A DNA stretch of 64,000 nucleotides from contig CP154954.1 of assembly GCA_039621445.1 (NCBI GenBank), forward strand, positions 4,268,714-4,332,713, in the 5' to 3' direction. The notes under the pieces are model-generated. The model saw only the letters and a program-made list of their open reading frames with translations, searched no databases and had not been told where the DNA came from. Of the stretch, positions 7,786 through 43,689 are shown piece by piece. Source of the DNA: Euglena gracilis. Its lineage: Eukaryota. Within the stretch, counting starts at the first letter, position 1; the number at the start of each line of letters is the position of its first letter. The translations under genes and the position numbers were made by a program.

Positions 7786-8257
7786 TAATCGATTGCTGAA
7801 TAAAATTAAAATGCCCTCAAAAATAAGTGGAGAGTGAGGGATACGGCTGCAGGGGGAAGGATCCCGGGGTGCTGGCGGGCTTGGGCTGCTTTTTTTTCGG
7901 ATGCAAGTCGGTGAAATTTGGTCCAAATATGGTCAAAAGCGGGTGTTAGGGCTTTTATTAACCCCCCCACCAAATAACCTGGTGGGGGGCGCTTCCTCCT
8001 GGCAGCGGCTGAATAACTTGGTTGGGGGAGGGGCAAAAAAGAGTGTTCCAAAAACTTCGGACCCCCTTTTTAGGCAAAATTCCTTTACGGCGCTGAAAAA
8101 TGGACCCAAATAATTTGGCAGGGAGGGGGCAAAAGTTGGTTCCAACAACCTGGCTGAAAAAGGGTGGGTGGGGTCCAGCCAGCATGCACCTCTGGAAGTT
8201 GGACTCCCCTTTGGGGTCCTCAAGAAAACACTGCTTCGGATCCACACACATTTCCAA

Positions 8258-8539
8258 CAGGGTTTTTTTAAGACCGGGGGGGGGGAGGGGGGGTCCCCCC
8301 CCACCAACCCCCCCCCGGGGGGCCCCCACGGGGGGGGGGGGTCCCGGGGGACCCACAAAAAATGGCCGAAAAATAGCGAAAAGTGCTAAAAATAGCATTT
8401 TTTCGGCGCCTGCGGCGCCGAAAAGTATATCCCACCCCCCTCCGGGGGGACCCCACCCCCCGGGGCCGGACCCGGCCGGACCCACCCACCCTACCCCCCC
8501 CCCCTCCCCCCCCGGGGGTCCACGACTAAAAAAACCCTG
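8258..8539. mobile_element. hAT-like MITE with perfect 8-bp TSD
   Basis: TIR CAGGGTTTTTTTA / TAAAAAAACCCTG; ATTTCCAA at both 8250-8257 and 8540-8547. Confidence 0.93.
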
Positions 8540-9419
8540 ATTTCCAAGTGTGCTAGACAATTCCTGAAAGCGGAAATGACGTGTGCCCAGAACTTCAAAG
8601 ATGCAGCTCAAAAAAATCATGCTCCCAGATGCTGCCTGTTTTGTTTATGTATTTCTATCATTGCTTTAATTCGTTCGAATTATGTCATTTTTTTACAGTT
8701 GCTATGATGCCTTTCTCATTTCATATGTCAGTTATTTATTTGAGTTATTTTTATTATTTGTTTGTCCCTATTCTTATTTTTTCTTGAATTTTTTACAGTT
8801 ATTTTTACTTCTTTTTTGATTGGCAATACGTAGCAAGGGCCACTCTGGGGCTTGTACTTTGCCAGCCCTGGATCTGCCAGCTTGAGCAGAGGAGAGTGTC
8901 AGAAATTATTCGAAAATGAACTTCAGATACATCAAAAAAACAGTGATGCCATTCGCCAGCAATGTCATTCATTTGTACATTTCTATTTTTTTTATTATGG
9001 CAGTTCACATTCATGTGCTTTTTTGTTATCTCTTGAATAGATTTTTAAACTTTATTTGGCAACATGCAAAGCCCGGAGAGCCTGATTATTGAAAAGGAAA
9101 AAAAAAAAGATTTTAGCACTGGTATCGAAATTCAAAACGGCGGCTCCCCAGCAGATTTGAGCGGGAAAATGCCAGTGTGCGCACCTTCAATTATTGCTCC
9201 ACGTGGGAGGGTTTCACGGGGGAGGCTAGCCACTCCGCATGCTGATTCTTGGAAAACAGACAAAACATTCATTTTTTTCCCTGGACATCCTTCGCCAAAA
9301 TTTGCTCCCCGGCTTCGCGGCAGCGGGCAAAGGTCCCCAAGCAGGCCCGCCAAAGCCAGGGTTGGGGGGAGGTCCAGCCCCACACCGACACGCCCCCGCA
9401 CGCCCACACCGCGTCCCCT

Positions 9420-12400
9420 AGGTGCCCCTAGCAATGCTGAAATTGAGGGCGTAGGTTGGTTGTGGCATTGCATCCCTGGGGTCTGGGCAAGCCCGTTTCT
9501 GTTTTGACATGTGTCACCAGGGGGCAGATTGCCACCCTCTGCCTAGGATGGGGTGGTCTGGTGAGGTAATTGAAGAGGTTTTGATGAATAGCAGTTTTAA
9601 AGTAAGGGAAAACACAGCAGGTCCTTAAGAAAGACCTCTGTTCAGAAATCCTTGCGATATCGCAATTTTTGAAGTACAGAAATACAATAATAGGTAATTA
9701 GAAGAAGAAAAAAATACAAGCAGCATCTGGGAGCAGGCACAGAGCAACCTTCACTATATTCTCACTTTTGAGCGGCATTGTTTCATCAGCCACTGACTTT
9801 TTTGCAATCATTTGGCAGCAATAATTTGTTCTGCGTCTTCTTCCTGTTTGCGGGCATACCCCATTTTGAGGCCTGTGGGATGGTTCCACTTTTCATGTGC
9901 ACTAGAACACCTCGAAACGTGTGTGAACGCGAGGAAGTGTATTCTTGAGCACCCCAAAAGGGTGTCCAGCCCTCCGTGCACATCCAAAATTTCAACTATT
10001 TGGCATTTCCCTCGGAAAAAATTCGAGCTACCATGCCTGTCAGTGAGGGGTGTGGGGGTGGGGAGCGTAGTGGTGTCAGAGGGTGTGGGGAAAATTTGCC
10101 TGTGGAGGCACCAAATGTTTGCGAACCACGCTGCGTGGCTTGTGAGAATGACGTCTTGATCCACCTCATTCGGAGCAGCTCCCAGACCCAAACTTCCGAC
10201 CCCCCCGGGTTTTTTTTTTCCAGGGCTTAGTTCTTTTTTGCCTCATTTTGTTTCCAACGGATGGAGGCAGGGCGACCATCCAGCACGTCTCCAGCCAGAC
10301 CATCCCCACGTCCTCGCCCGCCTACCACCGTCGCTCCCCTTCCTTGTTTTGTGGAAACTTCATTTTGCATCCGTGAATATGGTCCGGAATTATGCAAGTT
10401 CACGGCGATTACACAAAAGCAAAAAAAGAATATGTTTTCGCATTGATCCCGCCCACCAAGCACCTGTGGCCATCCAGTCGCGCTCAATCACGCCCAGTCA
10501 TGCCCAGTCACGCTCACTCACAACCAGTCCACACACAGACATCCCAGTGCCAAAAAAAGGTTAAAACTGGCCAAAAGAACATTGGCCAAAAAATGGCCGA
10601 AAATACTCAAAAACATGCATAGGAACAAATAGCCAAAGACGGCCAGACACGGACAAAAAGGGAGAAGAAAGGTCTAAACGTGGCCAAAAGTGGCCACATT
10701 CGACATGGAACCTTAGATTACCTTGTGTGACACTTGGTAGAACACTTGTGTGACCTGGGGGGGGTGCGCCATGGCAGGGAGGAAAAAATTTTCGGCTTCT
10801 TCGGCCGATCTTGGCCAGATTTTGGGTGGGTAGGTGGGTGGTTGACCACCCCGGGGGGGGGGGTCGTGGGTGGGTTTGGGCCTGGGAAGAAGTGCCCCCG
10901 GGGTCACTCGGTGGATCTATGCACGGACCCCCCCCCATGAGTGTCATCAAAGCCAGTCACAAACAATAGGGCCCAGTGGTGCCCAGTCATTTCACAGGTG
11001 CTTTCCCGCAAACCTTTGCAATGCATTTGCATGCATTCACTGAAATGGTATCTGATAAAGAGGAATGCGCCACTGGGGGAAGTAGCACAGCCGCCGCAGG
11101 AAGAAAAATGTAGCAGAGCACCCGAACCTCACTACTTCCTTTGGTTGGATGGGCGAACATGAAAAGTGGGGACGAGAGAAAATATCATCGTGGTTCGGTG
11201 AACTCGTTTGATGAAAACCACTGGACTTAAACAAACCCTGTGAAACCAGCTGACGGGCATCTGCAGGGGACTTCACGCAGACGGGCAAGCACCTATAGTT
11301 AAGCCAAAGAGTGGCTCATGTTAGGCAAAAAAAAAAAAAAAAAAAAGCCATGGTAAACAGCTCGTGGAGGCAACTACTGGCAGGATTCCCAGTTTGCGCC
11401 ACTTCCACACCTCAATGGTAGCAAGCTTGCTACAAGGCTTTCGGGCAGCGACTCCCAAAGGAATGGGGAGAGTCTTCTTTGGGAACAGAGTTTTTGGGGC
11501 TTCTAGTGAATTTATTTTACTCCGAAGCATACCGAGCTTCGGTCTGGATTCCACTTACCAAATTCAAAAACTACGACAAGTGCGCAAAATCCGCACATAA
11601 CCCTCGTGACCCAGCAGGCTTGACTTCGAAATTAACTCGCCAATTCAGTATTCAGCAAAACTGAAGAATCCTGGGCCCGAAGCAGGAGAAAGCGTGGGAA
11701 GCTGTATACTTAAATGTCGGCCGGGGGCGATTGGTTTATGGACGCAGGCTCAATCAGTCAAACTTACTACTTTCAACTGCTGAAAGCCAACTCCACTCCT
11801 TGAACCAGAAACTCAGGAAGTCATACACAAAAATATTGAAAACCCCCAAGTATAACCCCCCCAAACACAAAGCCTGCCAATGGTGCCATTCAGGAGAAAG
11901 CCAAAAAAATTTGGGTGGGTGGATGTATGCATTTTTTGGGGAAAAAAGGGATGCACAACAATTTTGGTATAGGTCACCCAGATAAATTTGACGTCCCCCC
12001 CCCCAAAACACACACACACACCTATTGCATTATGAGACCCAGGCTTTGCATTGGGATCCCGGGGGGGCCGAAAACTAGCTAATCGAGAAGCCACTAGCTG
12101 GACCCCTCTCTCCTGGGAAGTCCGGGGTCCGGGTCCACCAGGTCCCTCAACTGGAAAAGTCACACCAACTGTCTGACCAAATGGAAATGGGTTTTTGGTG
12201 TATTTTTTTTCTTCGAATGGTTTTGTTCCAATTTTTGGCAGCTTTTTGGGTTCAAATAAAAAGTTTCCGGTAGCGATCCCCATATGTTGGGAGGGGGTGT
12301 CCGGACCCCCACCCCTCACCTCCATGGCAGGTTTCAAAAGAAGCGAAATTTTTTCCTCTAGCGCTGCGACATCCCAGCAAGACATGAGGGATCGTTGGGG

Positions 12401-15400
12401 TAAAACCCCCAAATTTTTAACAGGAAAAATTTCGCCGTCCCTGACGCTTCGCACCAGGGGTCATATTTGGGGGGTCTTTCCGTATTTCCGAGATTTTCTG
12501 AAAAGCGCTTTATTTCCTGCAATTTTTTCCCATGCACAGGGAAATGCCCGGTTCATCTGCACTAACCGCTTCCTGATTATTGGAACAGGAACAAAACAAA
12601 CTTTGCCATTCTCCCCCAAAAAAATCACTGGTATCGCGGAAATTCGCCAGTGAAGCGTCCAACGGCCGGCTACTTCCAGCGCATTTGATGGGTTAGCGAG
12701 GTCAAACCAGCACGCTGCTGCCCGCAAAGCGGTCAGGGTTGGGGGGGGGAGGAGGTCCGATATAGCCTGGAGTTAGCTCCAAGGCAGGTTGGGAAAGAGA
12801 GTCATTCAACCGGTGGCACACGTGCGCTCCCCAAGCACACAATAACATCCGCGGTAGGTGCCCCTGGCATTTCAATGCTGAAATGCTGAGAGATAGGCTA
12901 AACATTGAGGGCGTAGGTTGGTGGCATTGCATCCCTGGGGTCTGGGCAAGCCCGTTTCTGTTTTTGACATGTGTCACCAGGGGGCAGATTGCCACCCTCT
13001 GCCTCGGATGGCCTCGTCTGGTGCCCTAATTGACCAGGTTTTGATGAATAGCCGTTTTCCAGTCAGGGAACCCCCAGCAGGTCCTTAAGAAAGACCTCTG
13101 TTCAGAAATCCTTGCGATATCGCAATTTTTGAAGTACAGAAAAACAATAATAGGTAATTAGAAGAAGAAAAAAATACAAGCAGCATCTGGGAGCAGGCAC
13201 AGAGCAACCTTCACTATATTCTCACTTTTGAGCGGCATTGTTTCATCAGCCACTGACTTTTTTGCAATCATTTGGCAGCAATAATTTGTTCTGCGTCTTC
13301 TTCCTGTTTGCGGGCATACCCCATTTTGAGGCCTGTGGGATGGTTCCACTTTTCATGTGCACTAGAACACCTCGAAACGTGTGTGAACGCGAGGAAGTGT
13401 ATTCTTGAGCACCCCAAAAGGGTGTCCAGCCCTCCGTGCACATCCAAAATTTCAACTATTTGGCATTTCCCTCGGAAAAAATTCGAGCTACCAGGCGGGG
13501 GAGGGGGGGGGGGGGGGGTGGGGAGCGTAGTGGTGTCAGAGGGTGTGGGGAAAATTTGCCTGTGGAGGCACCAAATGTTTGCGAACCACGCTGCGTGGCT
13601 TGTGAGAATGACGTCTTGATCCACCTCATTCGGAGCAGCTCCCAGACCCAAACTTCCGACCCCCCCGGGTTTTTTTTTTTTCAGGGCTTAGTTCTTTTTT
13701 GCCTCATTTTGTTTCCAACGGATGGAGGCAGGGCGACCATCCAGCACGTCTCCAGCCAGACCATCCCCACGTCCTCGCCCGCCTACCACCGTCGCTCCCC
13801 TTCCTTGTTTTGTGGAAACTTCATTTTGCATCCGTGAATATGGTCCGGAATTATGCAAGTTCACGGCGATTACACAAAAGCAAAAAAAGAATATGTTTTC
13901 GCATTGATCCCGCCCACCAAGCACCTGTGGCCATCCAGTCGCGCTCAATCACGCCCAGTCATGCCCAGTCACGCTCACTCACAACCAGTCCACACACAGA
14001 CATCCCAGTGCCAAAAAAAGGTTAAAACTGGCCAAAAGAACATTGGCCAAAAAATGGCCGAAAATACTCAAAAACATGCATAGGAACAAATAGCCAAAGA
14101 CGGCCAGACACGGACAAAAAGGGAGAAGAAGAAAGGTCTAAACGTGGCCAAAAGTGGCCACATTCGACATGGAACCTTAGATTACCTTGTGTGACACTTG
14201 GTAGAACACTTGTGTGACCTGGGGGGGGTGCGCCATGGCAGGGAGGAAAAAATTTTCGGCTTCTTCGGCCGATCTTGGCCAGATTTTGGGTGGGTAGGTG
14301 GGTGGTTGACCACCCCGGGGGGGGGGTCGTGGGTGGGTTTGGGCCTGGGAAGAAGTGCCCCCGGGGTCACTCGGTGGATCTATGCACGGACCCCCCCCCA
14401 TGAGTGTCATCAAAGCCAGTCACAAACAATAGGGCCCAGTGGTGCCCAGTCATTTCACAGGTGCTTTCCCGCAAACCTTTGCAATGCATTTGCATGCATT
14501 CACTGAAATGGTATCTGATAAAGAGGAATGCGCCACTGGGGGAAGTAGCACAGCCGCCGCAGGAAGAAAAATGTAGCAGAGCACCCGAACCTCACTACTT
14601 CCTTTGGTTGGATGGGCGAACATGAAAAGTGGGGACGAGAGAAAATATCATCGTGGTTCGGTGAACTCGTTTGATGAAAACCACTGGACTTAAACAAACC
14701 CTGTGAAACCAGCTGACGGGCATCTGCAGGGGACTTCACGCAGACGGGCAAGCACCTATAGTTAAGCCAAAGAGTGGCTCATGTTAGGCATAGAAAAACC
14801 AGAAAGAGGCAAAATCAAAGGCAGCCATGGTAAACAGCTCGTGGAGGCAACTACTGGCAGGATTCCCAGTTTGCGCCACTTCCACACCTCAATGGTAGCA
14901 AGCTTGCTACAAGGCTTTCGGGCAGCGACTCCCAAAGGAATGGGGAGAGTCTTCTTTGGGAACAGAGTTTTTGGGGCTTCTAGTGAATTTATTTTACTCC
15001 GAAGCATACCGAGCTTCGGTCTGGATTCCACTTACCAAATTCAAAAACTACGACAAGTGCGCAAAATCCGCACATAACCCTCGTGACCCAGCAGGCTTGA
15101 CTTCGAAATTAACTCGCCAATTCAGTATTTCAGCAAAACTGAAGAATCCTGGGCCCGAAGCAGGAGAAAGCGTGGGAAGCTGTATACTTAAATGTCGGCC
15201 GGGGGCGATTGGTTTATGGACGCAGGCTCAATCAGTCAAACTTACTACTTTCAACTGCTGAAAGCCAACTCCACTCCTTGAACCAGAAACTCAGGAAGTC
15301 ATACACAAAAATATTGAAAACCCCCAAGTATAACCCCCCCAAACACAAAGCCTGCCAATGGTGCCATTCAGGAGAAAGCCAAAAAAATTTGGGTGGGTGG

Positions 15401-18400
15401 ATGTATGCATTTTTTGGGGGAAAAAAGGGATGCACAACAATTTTGGTATAGGTCACCCAGATAAATTTGACGTCCCCCCCCCCCAAAACACACACACACA
15501 CACACCTATTGCATTATGAGAGCCAGGCTTTGCATTGGGATCCCGGGGGGTCCGAAAACTAGCCAATCGAGAAGCCACTAGCTGGACCCCTCTCACCTGG
15601 GAAGTCCGGGGTCCGGGTCCACCAGGTCCCCCAACTGGAAAAATCACACCAACTGTCTGCCCAAATGGAAATGGGTTTTTGGTGTGTTTTTTTTTCGAAT
15701 GGTTTTGTTCCAATTTTTGGCAGCTTTTTGGGGTCAAATAAAAAGTTTCCGGTAGCGATCCCCATATGTTGGGAGGGGGTGTCCGGACCCCCACCCCTCA
15801 CCTCCATGGCAGGTTTCAAAAGAAGCGAAATTTTTTCCTCTAGCGCTGCGACATCCCAGCAAGACATGAGGGATCGTTGGGGTAAAACCCCCAAATTTTT
15901 AACAGGAAAAATTTCGCCGTCCCTGACGCTTCGCACCAGGGGTCATATTTGGGGGGTCTTTCCGTATTTCCGAGATTTTCTGAAAAGCGCTTTATTTCCT
16001 GCAATTTTTTCCCATGCACAGGGAAATGCCCGGTTCATCTGCACTAACCGCTTCCTGATTATTGGAACAGGAACAAAACAAACTTTGCCATTCTCCCCCA
16101 AAAAAATCACTGGTATCGCGGAAATTCGCCAGTGAAGCGTCCAACGGCCGGCTACTTCCAGCGCATTTGATGGGTTAGCGAGGTCAAACCAGCACGCTGC
16201 TGCCCGCAAAGCGGTCAGGGTTGGGGGGGGGAGGAGGTCCGATATAGCCTGGAGTTAGCTCCAAGGCAGGTTGGGAAAGAGAGTCATTCAACCGGTGGCA
16301 CACGTGCGCTCCCCAAGCACACAATAACATCCGCGGTAGGTGCCCCTGGCATTTCAATGCTGAAATGCTGAGAGATAGGCTAAACATTGAGGGCGTAGGT
16401 TGGTGGCATTGCATCCCTGGGGTCTGGGCAAGCCCGTTTCTGTTTTTGACATGTGTCACCAGGGGGCAGATTGCCACCCTCTGCCTCGGATGGCCTCGTC
16501 TGGTGCCCTAATTGACCAGGTTTTGATGAATAGCCGTTTTCCAGTCAGGGAACCCCCAGCAGGTCCTTAAGAAAGACCTCTGTTCAGAAATCCTTGCGAT
16601 ATCGCAATTTTTGAAGTACAGAAAAACAATAATAGGTAATTAGAAGAAGAAAAAAATACAAGCAGCATCTGGGAGCAGGCACAGAGCAACCTTCACTATA
16701 TTCTCACTTTTGAGCGGCATTGTTTCATCAGCCACTGACTTTTTTGCAATCATTTGGCAGCAATAATTTGTTCTGCGTCTTCTTCCTGTTTGCGGGCATA
16801 CCCCATTTTGAGGCCTGTGGGATGGTTCCACTTTTCATGTGCACTAGAACACCTCGAAACGTGTGTGAACGCGAGGAAGTGTATTCTTGAGCACCCCAAA
16901 AGGGTGTCCAGCCCTCCGTGCACATCCAAAATTTCAACTATTTGGCATTTCCCTCGGAAAAAATTCGAGCTACCATGCCTGTCAGTGAGGGGTGTGGGGG
17001 TGGGGAGCGTAGTGGTGTCAGAGGGTGTGGGGAAAATTTGCCTGTGGAGGCACCAAATGTTTGCGAACCACGCTGCGTGGCTTGTGAGAATGACGTCTTG
17101 ATCCACCTCATTCGGAGCAGCTCCCAGACCCAAACTTCCGACCCCCCCGGGTTTTTTTTTTTTTCAGGGCTTAGTTCTTTTTTGCCTCATTTTGTTTCCA
17201 ACGGATGGAGGCAGGGCGACCATCCAGCACGTCTCCAGCCAGACCATCCCCACGTCCTCGCCCGCCTACCACCGTCGCTCCCCTTCCTTGTTTTGTGGAA
17301 ACTTCATTTTGCATCCGTGAATATGGTCCGGAATTATGCAAGTTCACGGCGATTACACAAAAGCAAAAAAAGAATATGTTTTCGCATTGATCCCGCCCAC
17401 CAAGCACCTGTGGCCATCCAGTCGCGCTCAATCACGCCCAGTCATGCCCAGTCACGCTCACTCACAACCAGTCCACACACAGACATCCCAGTGCCAAAAA
17501 AAGGTTAAAACTGGCCAAAAGAACATTGGCCAAAAAATGGCCGAAAATACTCAAAAACATGCATAGGAACAAATAGCCAAAGACGGCCAGACACGGACAA
17601 AAAGGGAGAAGAAAGGTCTAAACGTGGCCAAAAGTGGCCACATTCGACATGGAACCTTAGATTACCTTGTGTGACACTTGGTAGAACACTTGTGTGACCT
17701 GGGGGGGGGGGCGGTGCGCCATGGCAGGGAGGAAAAATTTTTCGGCTTCTTCGGCCGATCTTGGCCAGATTTTGGGTGGGTAGGTGGGTGGTTGACCACC
17801 CCGGGGGGGGGGGTCGTTCGTGGGTGGGTTTGGGCCTGGGAAGAAGTGCCCCCGGGGTCACTCGGTGGATCTATGCACGGACCCCCCCCATGAGTGTCAT
17901 CAAAGCCAGTCACAAACAATAGGGCCCAGTGGTGCCCAGTCATTTCACAGGTGCTTTCCCGCAAACCTTTGCAATGCATTTGCATGCATTCACTGAAATG
18001 GTATCTGATAAAGAGGAATGCGCCACTGGGGGAAGTAGCACAGCCGCCGCAGGAAGAAAAATGTAGCAGAGCACCCGAACCTCACTACTTCCTTTGGTTG
18101 GATGGGCGAACATGAAAAGTGGGGACGAGAGAAAATATCATCGTGGTTCGGTGAACTCGTTTGATGAAAACCACTGGACTTAAACAAACCCTGTGAAACC
18201 AGCTGACGGGCATCTGCAGGGGACTTCACGCAGACGGGCAAGCACCTATAGTTAAGCCAAAGAGTGGCTCATGTTAGGCATAGAAAAACCAGAAAGAGGC
18301 AAAATCAAAGGCAGCCATGGTAAACAGCTCGTGGAGGCAACTACTGGCAGGATTCCCAGTTTGCGCCACTTCCACACCTCAATGGTAGCAAGCTTGCTAC

Positions 18401-19335
18401 AAGGCTTTCGGGCAGCGACTCCCAAAGGAATGGGGAGAGTCTTCTTTGGGAACAGAGTTTTTGGGGCTTCTAGTGAATTTCTTTTACTCCGAAGCATACC
18501 GAGCTTCGGTCTGGATTCCACTTACCAAATTCAAAAACTACGACAAGTGCGCAAAATCCGCACATAACCCTCGTGACCCAGCAGGCTTGACTTCGAAATT
18601 AACTCGCCAATTCAGTATTTCAGCAAAACTGAAGAATCCTGGGCCCGAAGCAGGAGAAAGCGTGGGAAGCTGTATACTTAAATGTCGGCCGGGGGCGATT
18701 GGTTTATGGACGCAGGCTCAATCAGTCAAACTTACTACTTTCAACTGCTGAAAGCCAACTCCACTCCTTGAACCAGAAACTCAGGAAGTCATACACAAAA
18801 ATATTGAAAACCCCCAAGTATAACCCCCCCAAACACAAAGCCTGCCAATGGTGCCATTCAGGAGAAAGCCAAAAAAATTTGGGTGGGTGGATGTATGCAT
18901 TTTTTGGGGGAAAAAAGGGATGCACAACAATTTTGGTATAGGTCACCCAGATAAATTTGACGTCCCCCCCCCAAAACACACACACACACACACACACCTA
19001 TTGCATTATGAGAGCCAGGCTTTGCATTGGGATCCCGGGGGGTCCGAAAACTAGCCAATCGAGAAGCCACTAGCTGGACCCCTCTCTCCTGGGAAGTCCG
19101 GGGTCCGGGTCCACCAGGTCCCCCAACTGGAAAAGTCACACCAACTGTCTGCCCAAATGAAAATGGGTTTTTGGTGTGTTTTTTTTTTTCGAATGGTTTC
19201 AAAAGAAGCGAAATTTTTTCCATGGCAGGTTTCAAAAGAAGCGAATTTTTTTCCTCTGGCGCTGCGACATTTTTAACAGGAAAAATTTCGCCGTCCCTGA
19301 CGCTTCGCACCAGGGGTCATATTTGGGGGGTCTTA
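9420..19335. repeat. Tandem array of a ~3.47-kb unit (~2.85 copies), a mosaic of MITE fragments
   Basis: Identical ORFs recur at 9698, 13158 and 16640 (periods 3460 and 3482). The third copy ends with internal deletions at ~19190-19335. Confidence 0.97.
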
Positions 19336-21276: not shown

Positions 21277-21312
<36 letters not shown>

Positions 21313-21350
21313 CTTTTTTCTTTTTTTTTTTTTTTTTTTTTTTTTTTTCT

Positions 21351-21400
<50 letters not shown>

Positions 21401-29306: not shown

Positions 29307-31731
<2,425 letters not shown>

Positions 31732-31950: not shown

Positions 31951-31953
<3 letters not shown>

Positions 31954-32030
<77 letters not shown>
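31954..32030. repeat. (GA)n microsatellite
   Basis: Direct reading. Confidence 0.95.
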
Positions 32031-32033
<3 letters not shown>

Positions 32034-33060
32034 CCTGGCTCCTTTACCGCTGTGTGCGGAAAAGAGAGAGACACGCGGGAAACCGTGGCCACCACACAAC
32101 GGGTGGAACAAAGTCCCGGCCTTCCTTCCGGGCAACTAGCGCTTGCGAGCCTTCCGAGGCCAGGCGCAGGGGACTGAAGCGCTTCCCCACACAGCCCAAG
32201 ACGGCTAGGGGCTGGGAGTCCGGGGTGAACCGACGCCGCAACCGCCCACGGCGAAAATGATATGGGCTCCCGCCAGCTGACGCGGTTTACAAACATCAGC
32301 TAGGCCACCCCACGCAGCAACCAAGGTGGTGCTTCTCCGCCTGCAAGGGCTCGAGCGCAAAGTCCCGCCCGCACAGCCTCCAGTGCAAGTCGGCACAGAG
32401 GAAAGAGCCACGTGTGGGTGAAGCCCGTGACCCTCCTGGTGAGTCGCGGGTCGGGCTCCCCATACCTTGCTTGGGGTTGAAGCAAGTGGCTCTATGCGGG
32501 CTGTGGCTCCGGGAAGGCTGGCCCATCTCTGGGTGAAGGAGGCGGGCTGACGGGGTGCCAGGACCCCAATCGGCGCCGGCCGTGGACCAGAGTATCCCGT
32601 ATCCCAGAGTGGTGACCACCTTCACGCCAAGGAGTGGGGCGAGTGGCCCCCGGGTCCCCGCTCCTGGCAACCGGAGTTCCTGGGCCATTCCTCAGGTGAC
32701 GGCAGCACCCGAGGGCCATGCATCGCGCGGAGCCGCTCTCCAGGTGGATGCCCAAGGGGCCGTGTCTCGCCCGCCTGGATTGAGCCGTGGGTGGCCCTGA
32801 GGGTCCGCATACCCTTGGGGTCCATGACGCGCCCACCCGCGGAGCATGAGCGCCCCGTCACCAGGCGGTCTGCCCCCACCAGCCGGGCGTCGGGGGCATC
32901 GACAAGGAAGGCCCGGCTGGATCCTAAACCGCCTGGCTCCTTTACCGCTGTGTGCGGAAAAGAGAGAGAGACAGAGAAACACATGTGAAACTGCGGCCAC
33001 CCCATAACGGGTGGAACAAGTCCCAGGGCCCCAGAACCTGTGAGCCTTCCTAGGTCGGGC
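32031..33060. mobile_element. ~900-bp unit with ~130-bp terminal direct repeat (family B)
   Basis: CCGCCTGGCTCCTTTACCGCTGTGTGCGGAAAAGAGAGAGA at 32031 and 32929. The interior is homologous to 43705-44410. Confidence 0.75.
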
Positions 33061-33589
33061 ACAAAGTACCTTTCCTGTGTTTTCCCAAAACAGCAGGGGG
33101 CTTGGATTGTTGGTGAAAATACAAACCCCAAAAATGACCCCGAAACCCCCCAAAATTGGCAATTTTTGGCAAATTTGGTAAAAAATGGCATTTTTGATGA
33201 TGGTCGATCTCAAAAAATGGCCAAAAAAGCAGTTTCTGGGTGGTTTGCGGCCGAAAAAATCGTCCCCGGCAGCTTTCATTTTTCTTCCCCGAAGGGGGGG
33301 TTTATAAGTCCCGGTTTGGTTGGTCGGCCCGAGGGGGGGGGGTTAGTAAGTGGGGGGGTTTATAAGTGGGGGTGGGTTTAATTGGTGAGCTGAAGAATTT
33401 TTAATGTGACACACTGAACACTTGCGCAAATGCGCGCACAAGCAATTGGCCTTGGCTGTGTTTGATGAGATGAGATGACGGTTGCAATACCCCAGATTAT
33501 GTCTGAAATGAAAAATGTCCCTGTTGATTTGCGCAATTGTGCCCACAATTGTTGACTTTATTTGTACAACGACCCAGATGGTGCTGTGT

Positions 33590-33950
33590 TGTAAATCCCG
33601 CCGAATAACATCCCCATGGGGCTATTATTCGGATAATCGGTTAAATTTTCAGGGGGGCTATTATTCGGGGGGGGGTATTATTCGGATTTTTGGATAACAA
33701 TACGGGGGGGGGGGGGCTATTTTTCGGGGGGAGCTCCAAACACATACAAACATCCTTCTCTCCTTCTCTGATCTTCTTCAAGACATTGTCCATGTCAACA
33801 CTGATGAGGTCGACTCAGAAGCATCGCCACCAGTTTGGCCAAAGGCCTCCAGGGGGGGGGGGCTATTATTCGGATTTTTGGCTAAAATATCCGAGGGGGG
33901 CTATTATTCGGGGGGCTTTTATTTGGGGGGTGCTATTATTCGGGGGGGGG
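33590..33950. mobile_element. Degenerate TA-type MITE built of GGGGCTATTATTCGG repeats
   Basis: At least 6 copies of GGG(G)CTATTATTCGG plus the inverse CCGAATAA at the left end. Confidence 0.55.
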
Positions 33951-34218
33951 CGGGCAAGGCTCAATGGCAATGCTTTTGTGCTGTCACCTGCCTGCATTTG
34001 ACATACATGGGGGATGGCAAGGCAGGGTACAGCTGCTATTATTATGTTCTTTTTGTTTGTTGGCTTGCGCAATTGCGCATAAACATTTCCAAAAAAAATT
34101 ATGCGACACAGCGTGCAATGCGCATATACCAAAAGTGGGAGGAGGACGATGACGGGGGTGTGTCATTAGATTTGTGGGTTGATGAAAGGTAGCGTGCTGG
34201 CAGACCTGGGGACGACTG

Positions 34219-37200
34219 ATGGAGTCCTCCCAGGCCAGCAGCACCCACTCACACCGCCGTGGCTACGAGGGTTACAGCGAGAAGGCCGCCCTCTCCGCGG
34301 AGGCTGGGAAGCTGATGGGCCTGCTGGTGAAGGCCCACTTCGTCGTTATCTGCGAGGAGTTTGTGGCGGCGGTGGTGCAGCGCGGTCACCCGCTGAAGAC
34401 GCTGGTGGCGGAGGTAGCCCACACCAGGGTGCCGCTGCGGGCGGAGGGCGGCACAGTGCGGCGCTGCGGACGGAGGGCAGTGCGGCGCTGCTGGAGGAGC
34501 TGGCGCGTGAGCCGCGGCGGCAGCAGATTGCGCTGCTGCTGAAAGACGCCTGGGCGGTGTACCGTGCGCTGCGGCAGCACGCCTGCCCGCGGTCGGCGCA
34601 GCGGGTGGTGGCGGAGGAGCACGAGGCGCCGCTGGCGAGGCACCGGGCGGCCAGTCGGCTGCTACGGCCCAGCGACTGCTCCCACAGGTCGTCCAGTCGC
34701 TCGCACGCCCGCTGCCACCGCCACTGCCGGTTCCCGGAGTACCCGGGGTACCCGTCACTGGAGCAGCTGCTGGGGCGCGTCCACCGGGTGTCCGCACAGC
34801 TGGTGCAGTCCGACCTGCCGGCGTTCCTGGAGCTGGTGTTGGAGATCAGCGCGCGGCCGCTGGACGCGCACGAGCTGCGCATACCGCTGGACGTGCATCG
34901 GACATCACGATGACTGCTCAGAAGTGTTTTTTTTTCTGCCTTACAAATTGATGGACTCGGTGGGTACTGCTGATCACTGATGCTTCTGTATGTAAAATTA
35001 TATTTCTGACTCTGCCACTCTGCCGTCACTGTATGGAAAAATTTTATTGTATGCGCATGTGCGCAAATGCGCACATATTACTCTGACTTACGTGTTTGAA
35101 AAAATATCTCTAAGGGAGCACCCGCTTCTGGCATTAGATACACATGGATGATTTTTGTACTGATTTATTTGTGCAATTGCGCGCAGATACAACTTTCTCA
35201 GTGCTCATTGAAGGACCTCCCGAAGGACTGTGAAATTTTTTTGAAACAATTGATTTGCGCATTTGCGCGCACAAATTGTCCTTGTTCTGAGTGATTGATC
35301 ACGGACACTGACACTGTCCGTTGTGTGGTCATGCTGATGGGGCTGAGAGAACGCACGGTGCCCGGTGTGGTGGCCCTTCATGCTGACGGACGACCGGATC
35401 TCCTCCCATATGGGGATGCTGAAGGTCCTCCGCTTTCTGAGGGACGACGTGCTGTGCCGTGTGAAGGCCCCGCTGCCCTGCTGGTGGACATCAACCTGTG
35501 GTACCGCCACCTGAAGGTGGTGTACGGGCGGGAGTTCTAGCAGTGGGATGCGAGCGAGGCGCTGCGGCAGCTGCCCCCGTATGGTGTGTGGCCGCTGCAC
35601 GGCGCGTACAAGCAGGTGCCGACCATGCTGTACCGCCGCCTGCTGCCGCTGTTCCTGTTCCTGCAAGGGGGCAAGATGGTGCACGGGGAGCAGTGGTCCA
35701 CAAACCCGAAGGTGCGGGTGCTGGAGATGTGGGTCTGCGCCATACTGATGGTGCCGACGGACCGCCCTGCCCGCCTGCGACGGCTGTTCCGGACCCTGCG
35801 ACGGTGACAGGACACGTGGCGCCGGAGGTGGAGCGACGCCGGCAGCTGATGCAGCAGGCCCAGCGACGGAAGGAGGAGGCGGAGAGGCAGGCTTCCCAGA
35901 AGGTGCGTCACACGGAGTCCAGCGCCAAGATGCAGCGGGCATGGCAGTCGGGCAGCTGGGAGATGGAGTGCATCCGCCTCTGGAGGAGAGCCGCCGGAAT
36001 GAGGCCCAGGAGAGGCTGGACCGGGACCTGGCGGTGGCGCAGGCGCTGGAGGACCTCCTGTTGGTCTGGCCTGCTTCGCGTTGGCAGGTGCGGGAGTGCC
36101 ACTGGGAGGAGCGGCGGCCGCAGACGGGCACACAGGCGCGGAAGGTGCTGTGCAACGCCCTGGCGATGCTGCTCCACCTGGAGGCGCCGACCCCGGGACA
36201 CCGTGCACGCGGCCACTCGGACTACGTGCGGACGCTGGCGTGTGCGCTGCTGATGTGGGATCGGTGGCACGAGCAGCTGCCCGCCTGTTGCTTCTCGGAG
36301 GAGTCAACGAGGCGACGCTGAGCAGGCTGGGCAGGTCCATGCAGCACCACCCGGAAGCAGTGGAGGTGGAGGACGTGATGGACCTGTACCTCCTGGAGAG
36401 GCAGGGGCAATACGGTGCCCGGGAGCTGAAGGCGGCAGGGGTGGACCGGCGGTGGATGGCGGACTGCCTGTGGAACCTAGACTACCTGCTGGACAGCAGT
36501 GAGCTGTGGCCTCCGTTGGATGCCCCCGACTGGCTGGTGCACGAGATCGTGAGGTTCGCCTCGGTGAGGGGGATGTGTCTGAAGAGCATGCGACAGCTGG
36601 AGGACCTCGATGCGGACGTGGGGGGAGGAGTCGGAGGATGAGGCGGTGGTGCAGCAGTGGCCGGATGGTTGGACGGAACTGCCATCCCTGCTGGCACACG
36701 ATGTCGGACCGAAGGGCGAGACGGTGCTGAAGGATATCCCGCAGTATGCCCTGCAGATGTTATTGAAGGACCAGATGCCCTCCGCCGACGCCACGACGGA
36801 GCTGGACCAGCTCTGCTACGACGCGCAGGCTGGCAGCAGTCACCGGGCCCAGTCGGAGTTGGACTCCTACCAGGTGCACTTGGACAGTGTACATGGGCGC
36901 CGCCGTCCACGCCAGGAGAGAGCAGCTGGTGAGGTAGCAGTCAGATTCACAGTGAGCTATAGCTTCGAGAGGACCATTCACTATGAGACATTCATGCTTC
37001 AAATTGTACAATGAAGAAGCGTTCATTGAAATTTGCGCATTTGCGCTCATCAAAAACAAACATATGTCCATATGGGTTACGTTGTGACACACAGAATAAC
37101 ATCAGTCTCGTTGAAATTGTGCTGTATCAAACAAAATATGTTTTTATTTGCGAATTTGCGCAAATAAAAAACATTTTGTATGCAAAAAACATACAGGCGG

Positions 37201-37740
37201 AGCCTTCAGTGGGCGTACATATCAAATGAATTATACCGATGTCCTGCGTGAACAGTCTGAAAGCCTGATAGATAGCAACATATAACAAGACACGCCTGCA
37301 CTTTGTCGTATGCTCAGTTTGAATTGAATTGCTTGAAAAAGAGATTGTCACAAACAAGAGAGGGTTAGAAGGTACGGTATGTCAGAAACTCTGCATTTCT
37401 CAGAGTACTTGCTTTTTTTTTTGCAAATGCAAATCACACCTCCTCCTGAACAAAAATAATACGTTTTTTGGGCGCAATTGCGCAAATCAACATTCCACTT
37501 CAAAAAAATATTGGGTGAATACGCGCTGAATCTGCCAGCATCTGCGGCTGTGGAGTCCTCATCCGAGGAGTCGTTGCCCGAGCGACCAACTCGGCGTTCG
37601 CGGTTCGAGTCCGTGGTGGGCGGTGAGCTACCTCCTCAAAAAGGGCGTTCGGACACCTGCGGAACCTGCACGGCGTGGCGCAGCCTCCAGCAGCAGGGAC
37701 ATGGTGCCACCTAGGGCACCGCCGGGTGTGTACGTCCCGT
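34219..37740 (+). pseudogene. Broken multi-exon gene 1, unknown product, possibly related to DDE transposases
   Basis: GC3-rich blocks at ~34219-34913, ~35295-36928 and ~37539-37740 are separated by AT-rich spacers. There are several frameshifts and an in-frame TAG at 35538-35540. A phase-compatible GT-AG intron fits 36929-37538. Confidence 0.6.
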
Positions 37741-39591
37741 CAGTTCCCTTCGAGGAGTGCAACTGAAAGATTTTTCTGACGAGGCGACAGCTCAACAACT
37801 TTGGACACAATTTAGGGTCAGTCAATACGCAATTTCGACGCGCACAAGGCCCAAAATAAAAAAAATCATTACTTCTCTCCGCACACGTTCTGCACTTCCC
37901 AAAAACCAGGCCTACGGTTTCCCAACCGTCAACTGCCAATGGTTTAACAATTTCGCAATTAGAATGCGTGACGTGTAACCCCCGGTTTGTGTTGGGCAGT
38001 TTTTGACACAGATAAACAGTTGCAGAATACAGAAACATGGCATACACACACACACACACATGTATCCATACCCCCCCGTCACGAACCAGGAACCAGGAAT
38101 AATTCATTCCTGGGGTTCTGTCATGGTGTTTCACTTTTTTTTTCCAATTTTTGCCCAAAAAATGCCTAAGTCGGATGATTTTTTTGCATAATTTGGGCGG
38201 ATTGCCTACCGGGGGTTAGACGACCTTCCAGTGTGGATGTTTCAGTTGTCGAATGCACAATTCAATCCAGGGCGAGAAAGCCACCCTTTTTTGGAATGCC
38301 GCCTTGCCTCAGGTCACACACCATGGCCGACCCTGCTGGTATCCCCCCGGAGGGGGAAGTCACTGTCCCCGGGAGCCCAGGTCCGAGGTGGGGGTGGCTG
38401 GAGCGGAGCCCGCCCCGGCCCCGGCCGCGGCCGCGGCTGCGCAGGAGGAGAAGCCCGCCGCCAAGCCGGGGCGAGTCCGCCCCCGCGGAACCGCCCGGAG
38501 CCTGCCCATCGCCGAGGTGTACAAGGAGGAGGTGAAGAAGTGGGTCACCAGCGCAGGGACGAAGCTGCCGCTGGACGTGCTGCACGTGGGCTCAACTAGT
38601 CCGAGGGGCAGACGCGGCCCCTGGACAACATGGAGGTGGAGCGGAAGCTGCGGCAGCTGCAGCTAAACCCCCCACTGGAGATGGTGCGGGTCACCGTGTG
38701 GCAGAAAGACAGTATGTTATGTCTTGTGTCTGTGTGCGGATGTGTCATATGTGCCTTTTGCATTGGCCCAATTTATTTGGAGTCGGTTTGCGGAATGAAC
38801 ACAATTTTTGCGAACACATATGGACAAGTCTTTGTTGTATTGTATTTGGGTTCTGGTTTGATTTGCGCATTTACGCGCACATACACACCATGCGTTGATT
38901 TGCGCATTTGCACGCACACACACGCGCAATGTGTTGTTTTGTGCATTTGCGTGCACATACGCACACCTGTTCTGTTGATGCGCGCTGCTGCACACACATT
39001 CCATTCATTCTCTTCACAGAGGACAAATACGTGCTGGTCAGCGGGCAGCACATCACGTGCCCGCTGAAGTGGTGGGCGGAGAGCTTCCGGGCCCGGAAGC
39101 TGAACCCGCCGAAGGGTTCATCCTTTTATTTGTTTGTTTCTGGTTTTGCTTCCCCTCTCGTGCAGCCCCTCCCGTGCAGCCGCTCTCGTGTAGCCCATCT
39201 CATGCAGCCACTCTCGTGCAGCCCCTTCTGTGTCTGAAATATGCATCAAATGAAGTACTATGGCCAGGGCAAGTATGTCCTGGCTACCGTGCCCCACAAC
39301 CTGACGCCGGTGCACCTGCGGCGGGCCGCCAGAGGCGACGTCCAGGCCATCCAATCTGCGGTGAAAGAGCTGTCCATCCCGCGCCAACCTTCTGGCGAAG
39401 GGGAAAGACCTCTCCCCGTGCCGGCTGTGCGGCTAGCGGCGGCCTACCGGCAGGCCGGGTGGGACCGGTCCGTCGCACAGGCGTGATCCCACTACATTCA
39501 AATTACTGCAGCTTGATGCCATAATTGATGCCATTGTGCATTTTTTTGCTTTTGCGCGCACCAACACAATGGATCCATGGTGAGTGCTGGG

Positions 39592-39631
<40 letters not shown>

Positions 39632-39937
39632 GTCATCTGCGCAGGGCGACGTCATCAAGATGTGCGCGCCGCTGCAGCGGCTGGTGGAGGAGACCCCGGA
39701 GGCCATGGCGGGCCTCCTCAGTGTGGAGTCGGCGCTGGCAGCGCGGGGCCGCACGCTGCTGTCTTCGCACATGCGGTCCCTCCGGCGGCGGCTGACGCCC
39801 GAGGTGGGCGGCCAGGCCAGTGGGGGAGGAGAAGGCGGTGCGGTGCCTCCTGTACAAATCCGGTGGGAAGGAGGTGCCGGTGGAGGCGCTGGGGGCCGCG
39901 GTGGGCCTCGTCATCGTGGAGGTCAACCACAACACGG

Positions 39938-40175
39938 GCTCAGGATTCTGTTTTTTTTCCTCAATGTGCTCTTCGTTTTTTGTTTGCACATTTGCCCGCA
40001 TCAAAAAAATTTAACACGAGTATCGTTCCAGAAGTGGCCTTCTGCAAGCACTTTCCTTTCAGAATGTGACAATGTTCGTTGATTTGCGCACTTTCACACA
40101 ACTTTTAATGCGCGCACTTGCGCAGATGAAACGACCCTGTGCAGGATGCATCAGATTGAACAGAATCCTGCAGCC
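39938..40175 (+). other. Euglenid-type non-conventional intron (238 nt)
   Basis: CAG at +4..+6 and CTG at -8..-6, within a perfect 12-bp inverted repeat CAGGATTCTGTT (39941-39952) / AACAGAATCCTG (40159-40170). Removal joins VEVNHNT-V-LSELVRRLAGLLPIVIYGR in frame. Confidence 0.8.
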
Positions 40176-41301
40176 TCCTGTCCGAGCTGGTCAGGCGTCT
40201 GGCTGGCCTGCTGCCGATCGTCATCTACGGCAGGACGGGGGCGGTGTCAGCCGTGGAGACGGCGGAGCAGCGGCTGGCGCCGGGACGGAAAACGGCCATG
40301 GTGGACGTCTGGCTGCGGCAGGGCGGCCTGGGGGTCGCCCGCAAATTCGACAAGCGGTCCATGGTCGTGCTCTTCGGACCGGGAGACGTCGAGCATACCA
40401 AGGTCATCCTGCATCCGGTGCAGAAAGGTCCTGGGTTTTAAGCAGTCTGTGCGAATGGACCAGAGTTGTAACATTTGCGCAAATGCGCCCAAATTATTTG
40501 CAATCAGTGTTCTTTCTGTTATGTTATGTTGTATCTGTTGTGTGCTCCCTCGCAGGTGCTGCCGAAGGTGGAGTGGGACGTGGAGTCCAACTGCGGGCTG
40601 GGGCTGCACTGGCTCTGCGTGGAGTGGCTGTGGCGCAGGGTGGTCCGCCGGATGGTGGTGGCCAACGCCATGCTCATCCAGGCCACCGACACCGCGGTGT
40701 CGGCCCGTGTGGCGGCCTGGGCTGCCAAGCCGCCCGAGGTGCTGGTGGTGGTGGAGGACTCGGCCAGCAGCCTGGAGGAGGTCGCCCAGAGTGTGGGCAA
40801 CACGGTGACCCTGCCCTGGCCCGTCCCCTCCGCCAGCTGCCGCTGCTCCTGGCTGCGCTGGAGGCGGGGGACCCGCTCTGGGTGCCCCTGGAGAATGCCG
40901 CCCTGAAGGACAAGCTCTGGCTGGCCACTGAGGACACGGGGCGAAAGGCGAAGGAGTCCGAGGAGCGGCGCGAAGGGCGAAAGAGTCTGAGGAGCGGCGC
41001 CGCCAGACCAAACTGCAGCAGGAGGAGCGCCGCAAGCAGAAGCTAGAGCAGCGCCAGAAGGAGGATGGTGACAAGAAGAAGAAGCGTCGGGAGTAGGAGG
41101 TGGAGAAGAAGCCCAGGCCTCCAGGTCGAGGAGGTGGACAGCCCAGAGGAGGGCGATGTGGAGATGACCGCCCCCAGCCAGGAGACCCTGGAGTTGACCC
41201 TACCTGCCGCCAGCAGCCAGCCGGAGGAGGCCAGCCCGGTCATCGTGCCAGTGGCCGAGCAGGCGGAGGAGTCCGACGACAGCAACAGCAGCGACAGCAG
41301 C

Positions 41302-41774
41302 CAGGGGGGGGGGGGAAATGCGCTCGCTCGGCCTCGGAAAAAATGCGCAAAAATACGCAAAAATGCGCAAAAAAATGTGCAAAAATGCGCATTTTTGGAA
41401 AAAATGTGCAAAAATGTGCAAAATCCGAGAAAAAATGCGCAAAAATCACGAAAATGCAAAAATTACCCAAAAACATGCAAAAATGGCACCAAATTTGGAG
41501 AAATTATGTAGAATAATGAGGAAAATGTAAGTTTCAAAAAAAAATTGAAATTTTCAAATTTTTGCAAAAAATTGCACAAATGGTCAAAAAATGCGAAAAT
41601 TTTGGAAAATCACGAAAAAATGTGCCAAAAAGCAAAAAAAAATGCGCTGAAAAAAAATGCGCAAAAAAAGTGCGAAAAATGCGCAAAAATGCGCATTTTT
41701 GGAAAAATTGAAAAAAATGCGCAAAAAATGCGCAAAAAATGCGAAAAAATGCGAAACGCATTTCCCCCCCCCTG
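41302..41774. mobile_element. CAG...CTG MITE inserted in a coding exon, 7-bp TSD
   Basis: TIR CAGGGGGGGG..GAAATGCG / CGCATTTCCCCCCCCCTG; CAGCAGC at 41295-41301 and 41775-41781; interior made of AAAAATGCGC repeats. It interrupts a Ser-rich run (SSDSS|SGTSS). Confidence 0.92.
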
Positions 41775-43689
41775 CAGCAGCTCCGGCACCTCCTCGTCCC
41801 TGGCCAGTGAAGCTCTCGCGCTCCGACCAGTGGAGGGAGAAGTGGAAGAAGAGGAGGAGGACACCATCGAGCAGACCACCCCCGGGATCAGGAAGCCAGA
41901 GCCGCCAAAGCGGAAGGAGTGGAAGGTGAGAAGAAGGGAGGAGGAGAAGAAAGCGGAGGAGAAGAAGGGGGAGGAGAAGAAGGGAGAGGGCAAGGGGAAG
42001 GGCAAGGGCAAAGGCAAAGAGGACACCAGGTGGAAGGCGGCGGGGCTGGTCCGTCCGCCCGGGCCGGGTGAAGCCCTCAAGGGCCCAAAATCCTACCACC
42101 TCCTCGACCGCAAGAAATACCCGGTGATGTAGCCAATGATCGAAGCGGCCATCGCCAAGGTAGCGGCGGAGGCGGCGGCGGCCCGGGAGCCAGCTCCAGA
42201 GGAGGCAGAGTCGGAAGAGGAGCAGTCCGAGGGGAGGAGCCACCGCCTCCACCACCACGACCAGCCCCAGCCGCTGCGGCCAGGAGCACCGTCCGTCGCG
42301 GCTGAATCCGGGCGGGAAGCCGGCTGCTGCCTCAGAGAGCCTCGCCAAGCGGCTCTCCAAGCACAAGAAGTGAGACTGGCTGTGGGCTTGTCTCCTCGGT
42401 CTTCTTTTTTTTCAATTCCCCTGCTCATTTCACAATTTACCTCAGCATCTTATGTTTTGTAAAATGTCCATGGGCGCATTTGCGCAATTGTCTCTGGTTC
42501 AATTGATTCATTCTCTCAAAGCCCTCAGGCATCACAAAAACCCCGCTGTCGTTGTGTACGTGTACGCCACCCACCCCGGCCGTCCACCACCTCCAACCCA
42601 TCGTCGACAGGGTCACCCACCTGCTGCTCCTCATCCCGTTCTCCCTCCGCATCACCTTCCCTTTCCCTGCCAGGGGGTGGAATTAAATTTTTTTGGGGTT
42701 GGTGTGACTTGCACATCCCCTCTTGTGGCTGCACCCCCTCTCGTGCCCTGCTGTCCCTCTCACCCGTGCCACAGAAAAATATCCCTCCTCAAGTCCCACC
42801 TCCCACTCACAACCAGCGCGACGGAGTGTGGGGCGGCCCCCCCCCCATCCTGTTCAGCCTCCAGGGGCAAGCATATCCCGCCGGGGGCTTGTGTTGTTTA
42901 TCGGCCTTTTCAACCCGGTCCCTTTTTAACTCCTGTTTCCCTCCCTATCCCCTCTCTCCTACACCGGCCCACACACATTCGGGTGTTGACTTGCGTAATT
43001 GCGTGCACAAACATTGTTCATCAATTTTTATGCCTCACAAAAACACAAAAATCAAAGTCATGGGTTGCACGCACACACACCAATGTCAGTGTCCCCCCAA
43101 GCCCCCACTGACACCCCCTGTGGGTGTCTCACACCGGCTGCCCTGACCGCACCTTCCACCCCCCCCCTGCGCACCTCTGCACCCTCCGCAACTCTCCCCC
43201 CTGTACCTCTTCACCCCCTTCCCCCGTCACACCAGACCCACCGACCCGCAACCCCCCCCCCAAAACCCTGTCACCCAGTCCCCTGCTTTTCTTCCAAGTC
43301 CTAAAAAATCCCAGTCCCAGGGGTAAAAGTAGCAACACACACTCCGAGGCACCGGGAGGGAACACACTGCTGGCGACACTACTTTCCCAAAAAATGCTCC
43401 GCGCACTCAAAGTGGCGGGCAGGGTCCCGGTCCCTTGGTGCTTTTTTGCTTTTTTTCCACTTGGGCGGGCAAGGTCCAGGGGGTTTGGGGCCACAAAATC
43501 CTCCCCAGCACCCCTCAAAAGCACCATTTTTTGCCAAAATCCTGGGGGTCACTCCACCAAAACCAAAAAATGGCTTCGTTTTTGCCCTTGCTTGCCGGCG
43601 TGTTTCTTCGTCCCCCTCACCTTCACAGCCGGAATCAAAAAATTCGGGAATTTGCGCATATGCGCAAATCAACATAAAAATCCTTAAGT

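Follow-up and report, generated by a model that had tools for sequence, protein, structure and literature searches.

A 64,000-nucleotide stretch of Euglena gracilis contig CP154954.1 (hereafter the window, with positions counted from its first letter) holds three inverted-repeat elements with flanking direct repeats, here called E1, E2 and E3, and a candidate nonconventional intron, I1. An earlier reading of the letters, the original prediction, had proposed that these sequences belong to a candidate introner system, in which insertions that begin with CAG and end with CTG would be removed from RNA as introns without leaving a scar. Plus-strand coding in the window is confined by its codon-position GC signature (GC3, the GC content at third codon positions, ~0.9; GC2, that at second positions, ~0.45) to ~34.2-42.6 kb, where two genes, A and B, are located. 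E1 and E2 lie outside this coding signal, which fits the "intergenic" placement given to them earlier, while E3 and I1 lie within gene B. The features concerned are as follows.

8250 to 8257, no strand assigned: left copy of the target-site duplication (TSD) of E1, ATTTCCAA, with the right copy at 8540-8547, read directly.
8258 to 8539, no strand assigned: E1, a 282-bp non-autonomous inverted-repeat element.
20925 to 22621, no strand assigned: E2, a non-autonomous element of 1697 bp whose 13-bp repeats lie at 20925-20937 and 22609-22621.
34267 to 36912, plus strand: gene A, a decayed copy of a gene for a protein family of ~800 amino acids (aa) known from environmental contigs only.
37540 to 42600 (approximate extent), plus strand: gene B, which contains I1 and E3 and is strongly marked by the codon-position GC signature.
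38713 to 39019 and 39118 to 39251, plus strand: further clear conventional GT-AG introns of gene B.
39938 to 40175, plus strand: I1, 238 nt, a putative nonconventional intron located, like E3, in gene B.
40418 to 40555, plus strand: a conventional intron of gene B, 138 nt (GTGCAG, a pyrimidine tract and a terminal CAG), with frame 2 on both sides, read directly.
41299 to 41779, plus strand: the 481-nt span that would be excised around E3 under the code N3-CAG…CTG-N5 followed by a purine (R); the next base, 41780, is G, a purine.
41302 to 41774, plus strand: E3, a 473-bp A-rich element made up largely of (AAAAATGCGC)n-like repeats, inside coding-like sequence.

Ever since their first description, the nonconventional introns of euglenids have posed the question of how they originate and by what route they are removed. 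In Euglena agilis, 71.8% of the introns are nonconventional, and direct repeats are found at the junctions of 84.4% of the introns (Nomura et al. 2025, PMC12501133). The same study defined experimentally a splicing code, 5'-N3CDG…CH'GN5-6 followed by R, with a donor spacer of strictly 3 nt and an acceptor spacer of 5 nt (one more being tolerated), which places CDG at +4 to +6 and the complementary CH'G at -8 to -6 or -9 to -7 (PMC12501133). The ends CGG-CCG, CGG-CTG and CTG-CAG are likewise accepted, the full code is fitted by 61.2% of the nonconventional introns, and wholly artificial 50-bp sequences that obey it were spliced in E. gracilis (PMC12501133). As to origin, the authors stated that it "remains unclear" and noted that elements resembling MITEs (miniature inverted-repeat transposable elements) had been suggested (PMC12501133). 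The MITE hypothesis, which dates from 2013, was put forward by Milanowski et al. 2014 (PMC3935182), who noted that euglenids then had no known transposable elements. An intron of gapC present in just one E. agilis strain was later found to have 8-nt direct repeats at its junctions, which its authors ascribed to break repair (Milanowski et al. 2016, PMC4770533). A 2024 review treats CAG and CTG as terminal inverted repeats (TIRs) and the junction repeats as TSD-like, and it mentions neither an 8-bp length nor hAT elements (PMC11282704). Circular intron RNAs with full-length ends have also been reported (PMC11282704; PMC12501133).

The inverted repeat of E1, CAGGGTTTTTTTA, matches at 13/13 positions (arms 8258-8270 and 8527-8539, the far end being the exact reverse complement), G/C homopolymers abound in its interior, which is self-folding, and its two flanks, ATTTCCAA and ATTTCCAA, agree at 8/8 positions in unique sequence, as an 8-bp TSD does. 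Terminal repeats of hAT elements typically begin with CAG. The duplicated octamer ATTTCCAA conforms to nTnnnnAn, the pattern of the hAT element Hermes; hAT elements make 8-bp duplications and prefer that pattern (PMC10368747). When E1 is folded as RNA, its ends are paired in both the minimum-energy and the centroid structures (z = -5.48). The plus-strand base directly after its would-be excision span is not a purine. A metagenome scan with the first 20 nt of E1 gave eight loci, none of which (0/8) had the far-end motif of E1 within 1.5 kb; seven of the eight continue as coding-like sequence that looks bacterial by eye, and all were dropped as copies of E1.

E2 likewise has a perfect inverted repeat (CAGGCACCTATAG, 13/13), and both of its flanks read ACCACCAC. 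They lie within an (ACC)n microsatellite, where the match extends to 11 nt; since the insertion sits in such a repeat, the flank match of 8-11 nt says nothing on the length of its TSD. The interior contains a run of 126 T and 21-bp tandem repeats. The two ends, 20925-21030 and 22527-22621, are direct copies of a ~100-bp unit filled with (CCATTTTAGG)5-6, and because these units are themselves bounded by CACCTATAG…CTATAGGTG, E2 looks like a composite in which a 1.5-kb core is enclosed by two small elements. Its open reading frames gave no Pfam match.

E3 differs from E1 and E2 in lying inside coding-like sequence. Its ends read CA-G12-AAATGCG and CGCATTT-C9-TG, giving an inverted repeat of ~18 bp that is perfect except for the length of the G run and that includes perfect 16-nt arms at 41307-41322 and 41757-41772. 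The flanking direct repeat, CAGCAGC, matches at 7/7 positions (copies at 41295-41301 and 41775-41781) and abuts the inverted repeat exactly. The coding signature reaches both junctions in the same frame, frame 1: GC at the three codon positions is.68/.48/.88 on one side and.62/.46/.80 on the other (.72/.45/.88 and.70/.48/.97 in reference exons), and, read directly, nearly all third positions are G or C in the last 11 codons before E3 and in the first 8 codons after it. The motifs of the code stand at the required distances in the span given above, with CAG at 41302-41304 and CTG at 41772-41774. Folded as RNA, E3 forms a 16-18-bp stem with its ends paired in the minimum-energy and centroid folds (z = -7.05). 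Removal of 480 nt, that is, of E3 and one 7-bp repeat (for example 41299-41778), leaves a natural-looking Ser/Glu-rich reading frame, and E3 may be spliced from RNA.

I1 has the anatomy that had been ascribed to it, namely 3 nt, a 12-bp CAG…CTG inverted repeat and 5 nt at 39938-40175. Its donor spacer is GCT and its acceptor spacer CAGCC; CAG stands at 39941-39943 and CTG at 40168-40170; and the stem, in which CAGGATTCTGTT pairs with AACAGAATCCTG at 12/12 positions, is the sole inverted repeat reported in 39800-40300. The coding frame is 1 upstream and 2 downstream, and a length of 238 nt (1 modulo 3) joins the two correctly. The ends are paired in the minimum-energy and centroid RNA structures (z = -3.19). 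With the GT-AG intron at 40418-40555 in the same gene, gene B would mix both intron types, the nonconventional one being the candidate I1. Judged by this intron type, the window looks like nuclear DNA of a euglenid.

The elements were set against the background of the whole window. Among 982 inverted-repeat pairs of at least 10 bp in the 64 kb, 19 have a flanking direct repeat of at least 5 nt, and these are E1, E2, four pairs inside the internal repeats of E3 and 13 pairs in a TA-rich region at 46.3-50.6 kb. A scan over all 64 terminal trinucleotides, keeping pairs with at least 11/12 repeat matches, returned 1986 pairs, five of them with a flank match of at least 7/8. Two of these five, E1 and E2, belong to the 21 pairs of the CAG type; the remainder are artefacts, of which one is a palindromic tandem (1376-1414) and the others lie inside E1 and inside E3. 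Perfect 12-bp inverted-repeat pairs number 316 in the window, as against a mean of 26 over 100 block-wise Markov shuffles, and all of the shuffles together produced one pair with a flank match of at least 7/8. E1-E3 are thus the only real elements in the 64 kb that combine an inverted repeat with a flanking duplication, far above chance, and, by the repeat and flank scans and the shuffles, every one of them has CAG…CTG ends. No such element with the other ends permitted by the code (CGG-CCG, CGG-CTG or CTG-CAG) is present in the window. The original prediction is borne out in the coordinates of the three elements, in their repeats of 13, 13 and ~18 bp and in their flanks of 8, at least 8 and 7 bp.

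That E1-E3 are transposon-type insertions is well supported. They look like three unrelated non-autonomous MITE-like insertions with an hAT-like pattern (CAGG…CCTG ends, TIRs of 13-18 bp, and a TSD of 8 bp or near it), and they are presumably mobile and multi-copy. Their ends satisfy the published splicing code. We propose that these MITE-like insertions, by virtue of ends that match the code, can be read as introns once they come to lie in a gene; E1 and E2 would be free, non-genic copies, E3 an insertion in the coding sequence of gene B, and I1 an ordinary nonconventional intron of the same gene. We give this explanation a probability of about 0.55. Should an element of this kind insert into an exon that is transcribed, the nonconventional machinery would cut from 3 nt upstream to 5 nt downstream of it. 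The excised span would be the element plus 8 nt, and with an 8-bp duplication the original mRNA would be restored exactly. The published knock-in results and the 3+5 arithmetic argue strongly for scarless excision of a copy that lies in an exon and has an 8-bp duplication, and the 3+5 geometry put forward in the original prediction agrees with the experimentally defined Euglena code (PMC12501133).

The earlier claim of scarless removal nonetheless holds in its arithmetic, by which 3 and 5 nt make up one 8-bp TSD, and not in its exonic example. The flanking repeat of E3 is 7 bp rather than 8, and the flanks read in an 8-nt register match at 0/8 positions. Because the duplication is 7 bp, the code takes out 481 nt where 480 are needed for the frame; the frame shifts and meets a stop at 41929, and E3, as assembled, is not a clean case of scarless 3+5 removal. 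Moving the boundary of E3 by one base gives a match of 7/8 at best, which equals a 1-nt deletion at a junction, and the 7 bp would be explained if a duplication of originally 8 bp had lost 1 nt at one of its junctions. An acceptor spacer of 4 nt (cutting after 41778, before A) would hold the frame. In the published assay, an acceptor spacer shortened by one nucleotide gave ~20% of the wild-type transcript (PMC12501133).

These shortcomings of E3, the weak activity of the shortened spacer included, weigh against the proposed explanation, and they are joined by others. Part of the flank match of E3 may reflect an (AGC)n-like context rather than a duplication, as its site, cagcaacagcagcgacagcagc/…/cagcagc, is AGC-rich and repetitive in serine codons. 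The exon base after I1 is T (40176), a pyrimidine where the code wants a purine. The flanks of I1 in the 3+5 register match at 3/8 positions, which is the chance level, and for that reason the "decayed TSD" that had made I1 an aged intron in the original prediction is an assumption, not an observation. Of its three supports, then, one is empty (the decayed TSD of I1) and one is off by a nucleotide (E3). E1, E2, E3 and I1 all have stems that start with CAGG, and within the window they have no mutual similarity beyond it, the only matches being of low complexity; since they are alike in CAGG only, a family common to introns and free elements, one of the checks proposed with the prediction, is not demonstrated. 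Neither a second copy of E1, E2, E3 or I1 nor an empty-site paralogue of the elements, another of those checks, was found in the window, and none of its 186 open reading frames of at least 72 aa (97 + 89) has a transposase domain in Pfam. An Rfam search of the window gave 0 matches. In gene A, homology supports a single intron (445 nt, ~34905-35352); by the best homology fit its ends are not GT-AG, and the CAG/CTG code is missing from it. Finally, the decay of gene A and the roughly four abrupt shifts of frame in gene B suggest that the host of E3 may itself be dead, a pseudogene in which the splicing of E3 would be irrelevant.

One alternative is that the agreement of the ends is coincidental. 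E1-E3 would then be ordinary hAT-type MITEs, the introns would arise otherwise (by double-strand-break repair or by conversion of conventional introns), and CAG/CTG would be a splicing requirement only. The lack of a sequence family common to I1 and the elements, the chance-level flanks of I1, the single nucleotide by which E3 departs from the 3+5 rule and the motif-free, non-GT-AG intron of gene A all suit such an account, as does the crediting of the 8-nt gapC repeats to break repair by Milanowski 2016 (PMC4770533). The code, moreover, takes CGG-CCG, CGG-CTG and CTG-CAG ends too (PMC12501133), and the window has no element with those ends. We nevertheless regard coincidence as less likely, given that CAGG…CCTG ends occur on every real inverted-repeat-plus-duplication element in the window, that the published spacer lengths total exactly 8, that junction repeats occur in 84.4% of E. 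agilis introns (PMC12501133) and that the repeats of the new gapC intron are exactly 8 nt (PMC4770533).

A second alternative concerns E3 itself, which on this account would be no fresh exonic insertion; it would be either an established nonconventional intron with a junction repeat drawn from a serine-codon microsatellite, or a neutral insertion in a pseudogene. The repetitive context cagcaacagcagcgacagcagc/…/cagcagc, the TGCGCA motif common to the interior of E3 and other intron-like GC dips (9/52 window copies lie in E3), the abrupt frame changes of gene B, and the in-frame stop and frameshifts of gene A are in its favor. It is made less likely by an inverted repeat of 16-18 bp that is perfect but for the length of its G run, by a 7/7 repeat that abuts it exactly, and by coding periodicity that reaches both junctions. 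The placement given in the original prediction stands for E1 and E2, which are without coding signal, and for E3 as lying between coding flanks in the same frame, with the reservation that its host is possibly a dead gene. A reversed direction, in which excised intron RNA circles, known in the literature (PMC11282704; PMC12501133), would be reverse-transcribed and reinserted to give the intergenic copies, is highly improbable, as a reinserted circle would bring its N3 and N5 spacers with it, without an 8-bp duplication abutting CAG/CTG as in E1, and as E2 is 1.7 kb long, has composite ends and lies in a microsatellite.

The proposal that CAG…CTG elements become introns can be set beside several known systems. 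With the nonconventional introns of euglenids, I1 and the predicted excision span of E3 share N3-CAG, a paired stem and CTG-N5, with ends that pair when folded, and gene B also has conventional GT-AG introns as their host genes do. Unlike those introns, E1 and E2 are non-genic, E3 needs 480 rather than 481 nt for its frame, and I1 and E1 (plus strand) are without the downstream purine. Like the hAT MITEs (relatives of Ac/Ds and Hermes), the elements have short TIRs from CAG, an 8-bp nTnnnnAn TSD (E1), no coding capacity, and subterminal short repeats (E2); they differ in that the window shows neither an hAT transposase nor multiple copies nor an excision footprint, and that the TSD of E3 is 7 bp and that of E2 unmeasurable.

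The introners of Micromonas and Aureococcus, and those of the dinoflagellates Polarella and Amoebophrya, are also insertions with inverted repeats and TSDs that become introns, one TSD copy being lost with the element. Those of Amoebophrya have inverted repeats of 8-20 nt, junction repeats of 3-5 nt and non-canonical ends (PMC7789003; PMC11282704). Introners, however, exist as many near-identical intron copies, are mostly spliceosomal and draw GT/AG partly from the TSD, whereas no near-identical family across introns was found within the window, the TGCGCA motif being the sole likeness, and removal here would use a separate, stem-dependent euglenid pathway with a 3+5 offset. The MITE-derived introns of Fritillaria borealis are likewise non-GT-AG, with inverted repeats, duplications and species-specific positions; unlike what is proposed here, they are cut by an adapted U2 spliceosome and have the ends AG-AC and AG-AT (PMC11282704).

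That a transposon origin had been "suggested in general", as the original prediction put it, is correct and an understatement, as published work already contains the MITE origin, the reading of CAG/CTG as TIRs and the likeness of the junction repeats to TSDs (PMC3935182, PMC11282704). In the literature searched, which excluded supplements and subscription journals, nothing was found that connects the 3+5 spacers with hAT elements or with an 8-bp duplication; what is new is the 3+5=8 geometry and the free copies. With free elements that have exact splice-code ends and an 8-bp duplication, the old MITE hypothesis becomes quantitatively testable: it predicts that 8-nt matches in the 3+5 register are over-represented and that introns and intergenic DNA have families of elements in common. 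The set of elements gives a published hypothesis the sharper form of a geometric prediction that can be tested, and the introner system itself is best called a candidate.

It is plausible, if short of probable, that such elements were the historical source of nonconventional introns. Tentatively, these introns might even be largely the RNA-level footprint of one class of transposon with CAGG…CCTG ends and 8-bp TSDs. Their 3- and 5-nt spacers would then be the two parts of one duplication copy, E1 and E2 free members and E3 a recent genic one; each exonic insertion would be born a scarless intron, and the "slidable" repeats of 84% would be decaying duplications. If this is true, Euglena would have a dedicated RNA excision pathway that neutralises transposon insertions at birth, allowing massive intron gain.

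The state of the two genes bears on how E3 is to be read. Gene A aligns colinearly with a 799-aa protein from an environmental contig, over residues 5-781 of the latter. A HMMER search with one of its exons gave 12 environmental homologues (P0001-P0012; JGI/IMG and ENA), the best with 76% identity and all annotated as "hypothetical". With at least four frameshifts, one stop codon in frame and the loss of 4 residues, the copy in the window looks like a pseudogene. Pfam recognised no domain in gene A. A DUF6589-like assignment, to which the language-model features of a protein atlas gave 0.92 (177/256 features), was unconfirmed by hmmscan and was set aside, and the AlphaFold model is poor (mean predicted local distance difference test score, pLDDT, 49.5). 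Word searches with the exons of gene B returned no homologue and no protein derived from transcripts, and no Pfam domain was found in it.

The frame of gene B changes abruptly at ~39.75, 40.83, 40.95 and 41.08 kb, within GC-rich coding blocks. Short nonconventional introns were considered as the cause and rejected, as just weak, chance-like CDG/CHG pairs are present in this GC-rich coding sequence. Taken together, genes A (34460-36620) and B (39750-41100) have about ten abrupt frame changes without intron-like sequence, seven of which are -1; examples are a G missing at the junction of GAGGAG and TC (36303) and a run of six G at ~36620. In gene B, at least one of the changes coincides with a run of G, and another, at ~40937-40995, falls between a 29-nt and a 30-nt copy of a repeat unit coding for AKESEERR. 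The changes could be real, as in a decaying pseudogene, or could stem from assembly errors, namely indels in homopolymers. Also in gene B, a 65-nt candidate GT-AG intron (39580-39644; GTGAGT…(TG)n…CTGCGCAG) follows an in-frame TGA at 39485 and precedes an ATG-containing exon in frame 0. It may alternatively be a spliced-leader acceptor, and gene B may be two genes.

The window contains 52 copies of the palindromic hexamer TGCGCA where ~15 are expected (~3.5x), often in the form TTTGCGCAAA or ATGCGCA. The segment at 33-46 kb has 33/52 of these copies, mainly in the dips in GC that resemble introns within genes A and B, and E3 has 9/52. The motif is concentrated in 33400-43700 and 60000-64000, in E3 and in AT-rich segments that resemble introns of either type, conventional or nonconventional, and it is often paired as inverted repeats (for example 37031-37049 with 37469-37487). 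It provides a weak link between E3 and the intron-like segments.

Several further features of the window were noted. A tandem array at 9436-19199 consists of nearly three copies of a ~3.46-kb unit with 97.5-98.3% identity, without a coding signature or a Pfam match. A 3.8-kb block at 29400-33200 is 60-78% GC; both of its strands contain long open frames, but periodicity by codon position is nearly absent and Pfam gave no match. A long inverted repeat with 425-bp arms (46964-47388 and 48913-49329; 95.8% identity) and a ~1.5-kb spacer is flanked by TA/TG-rich microsatellite blocks at 46.39-46.96 and 49.33-50.6 kb. It shows no flanking duplication at the CAG/CTG sited 4 bp inside its ends, and it may be a foldback-type element. 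Finally, a direct repeat of ~750 bp (32310-33059 and 43801-44555; 74-78% identity) brackets the 11.5-kb segment that contains genes A and B, and could represent either old ends resembling long terminal repeats or a dispersed repeat.

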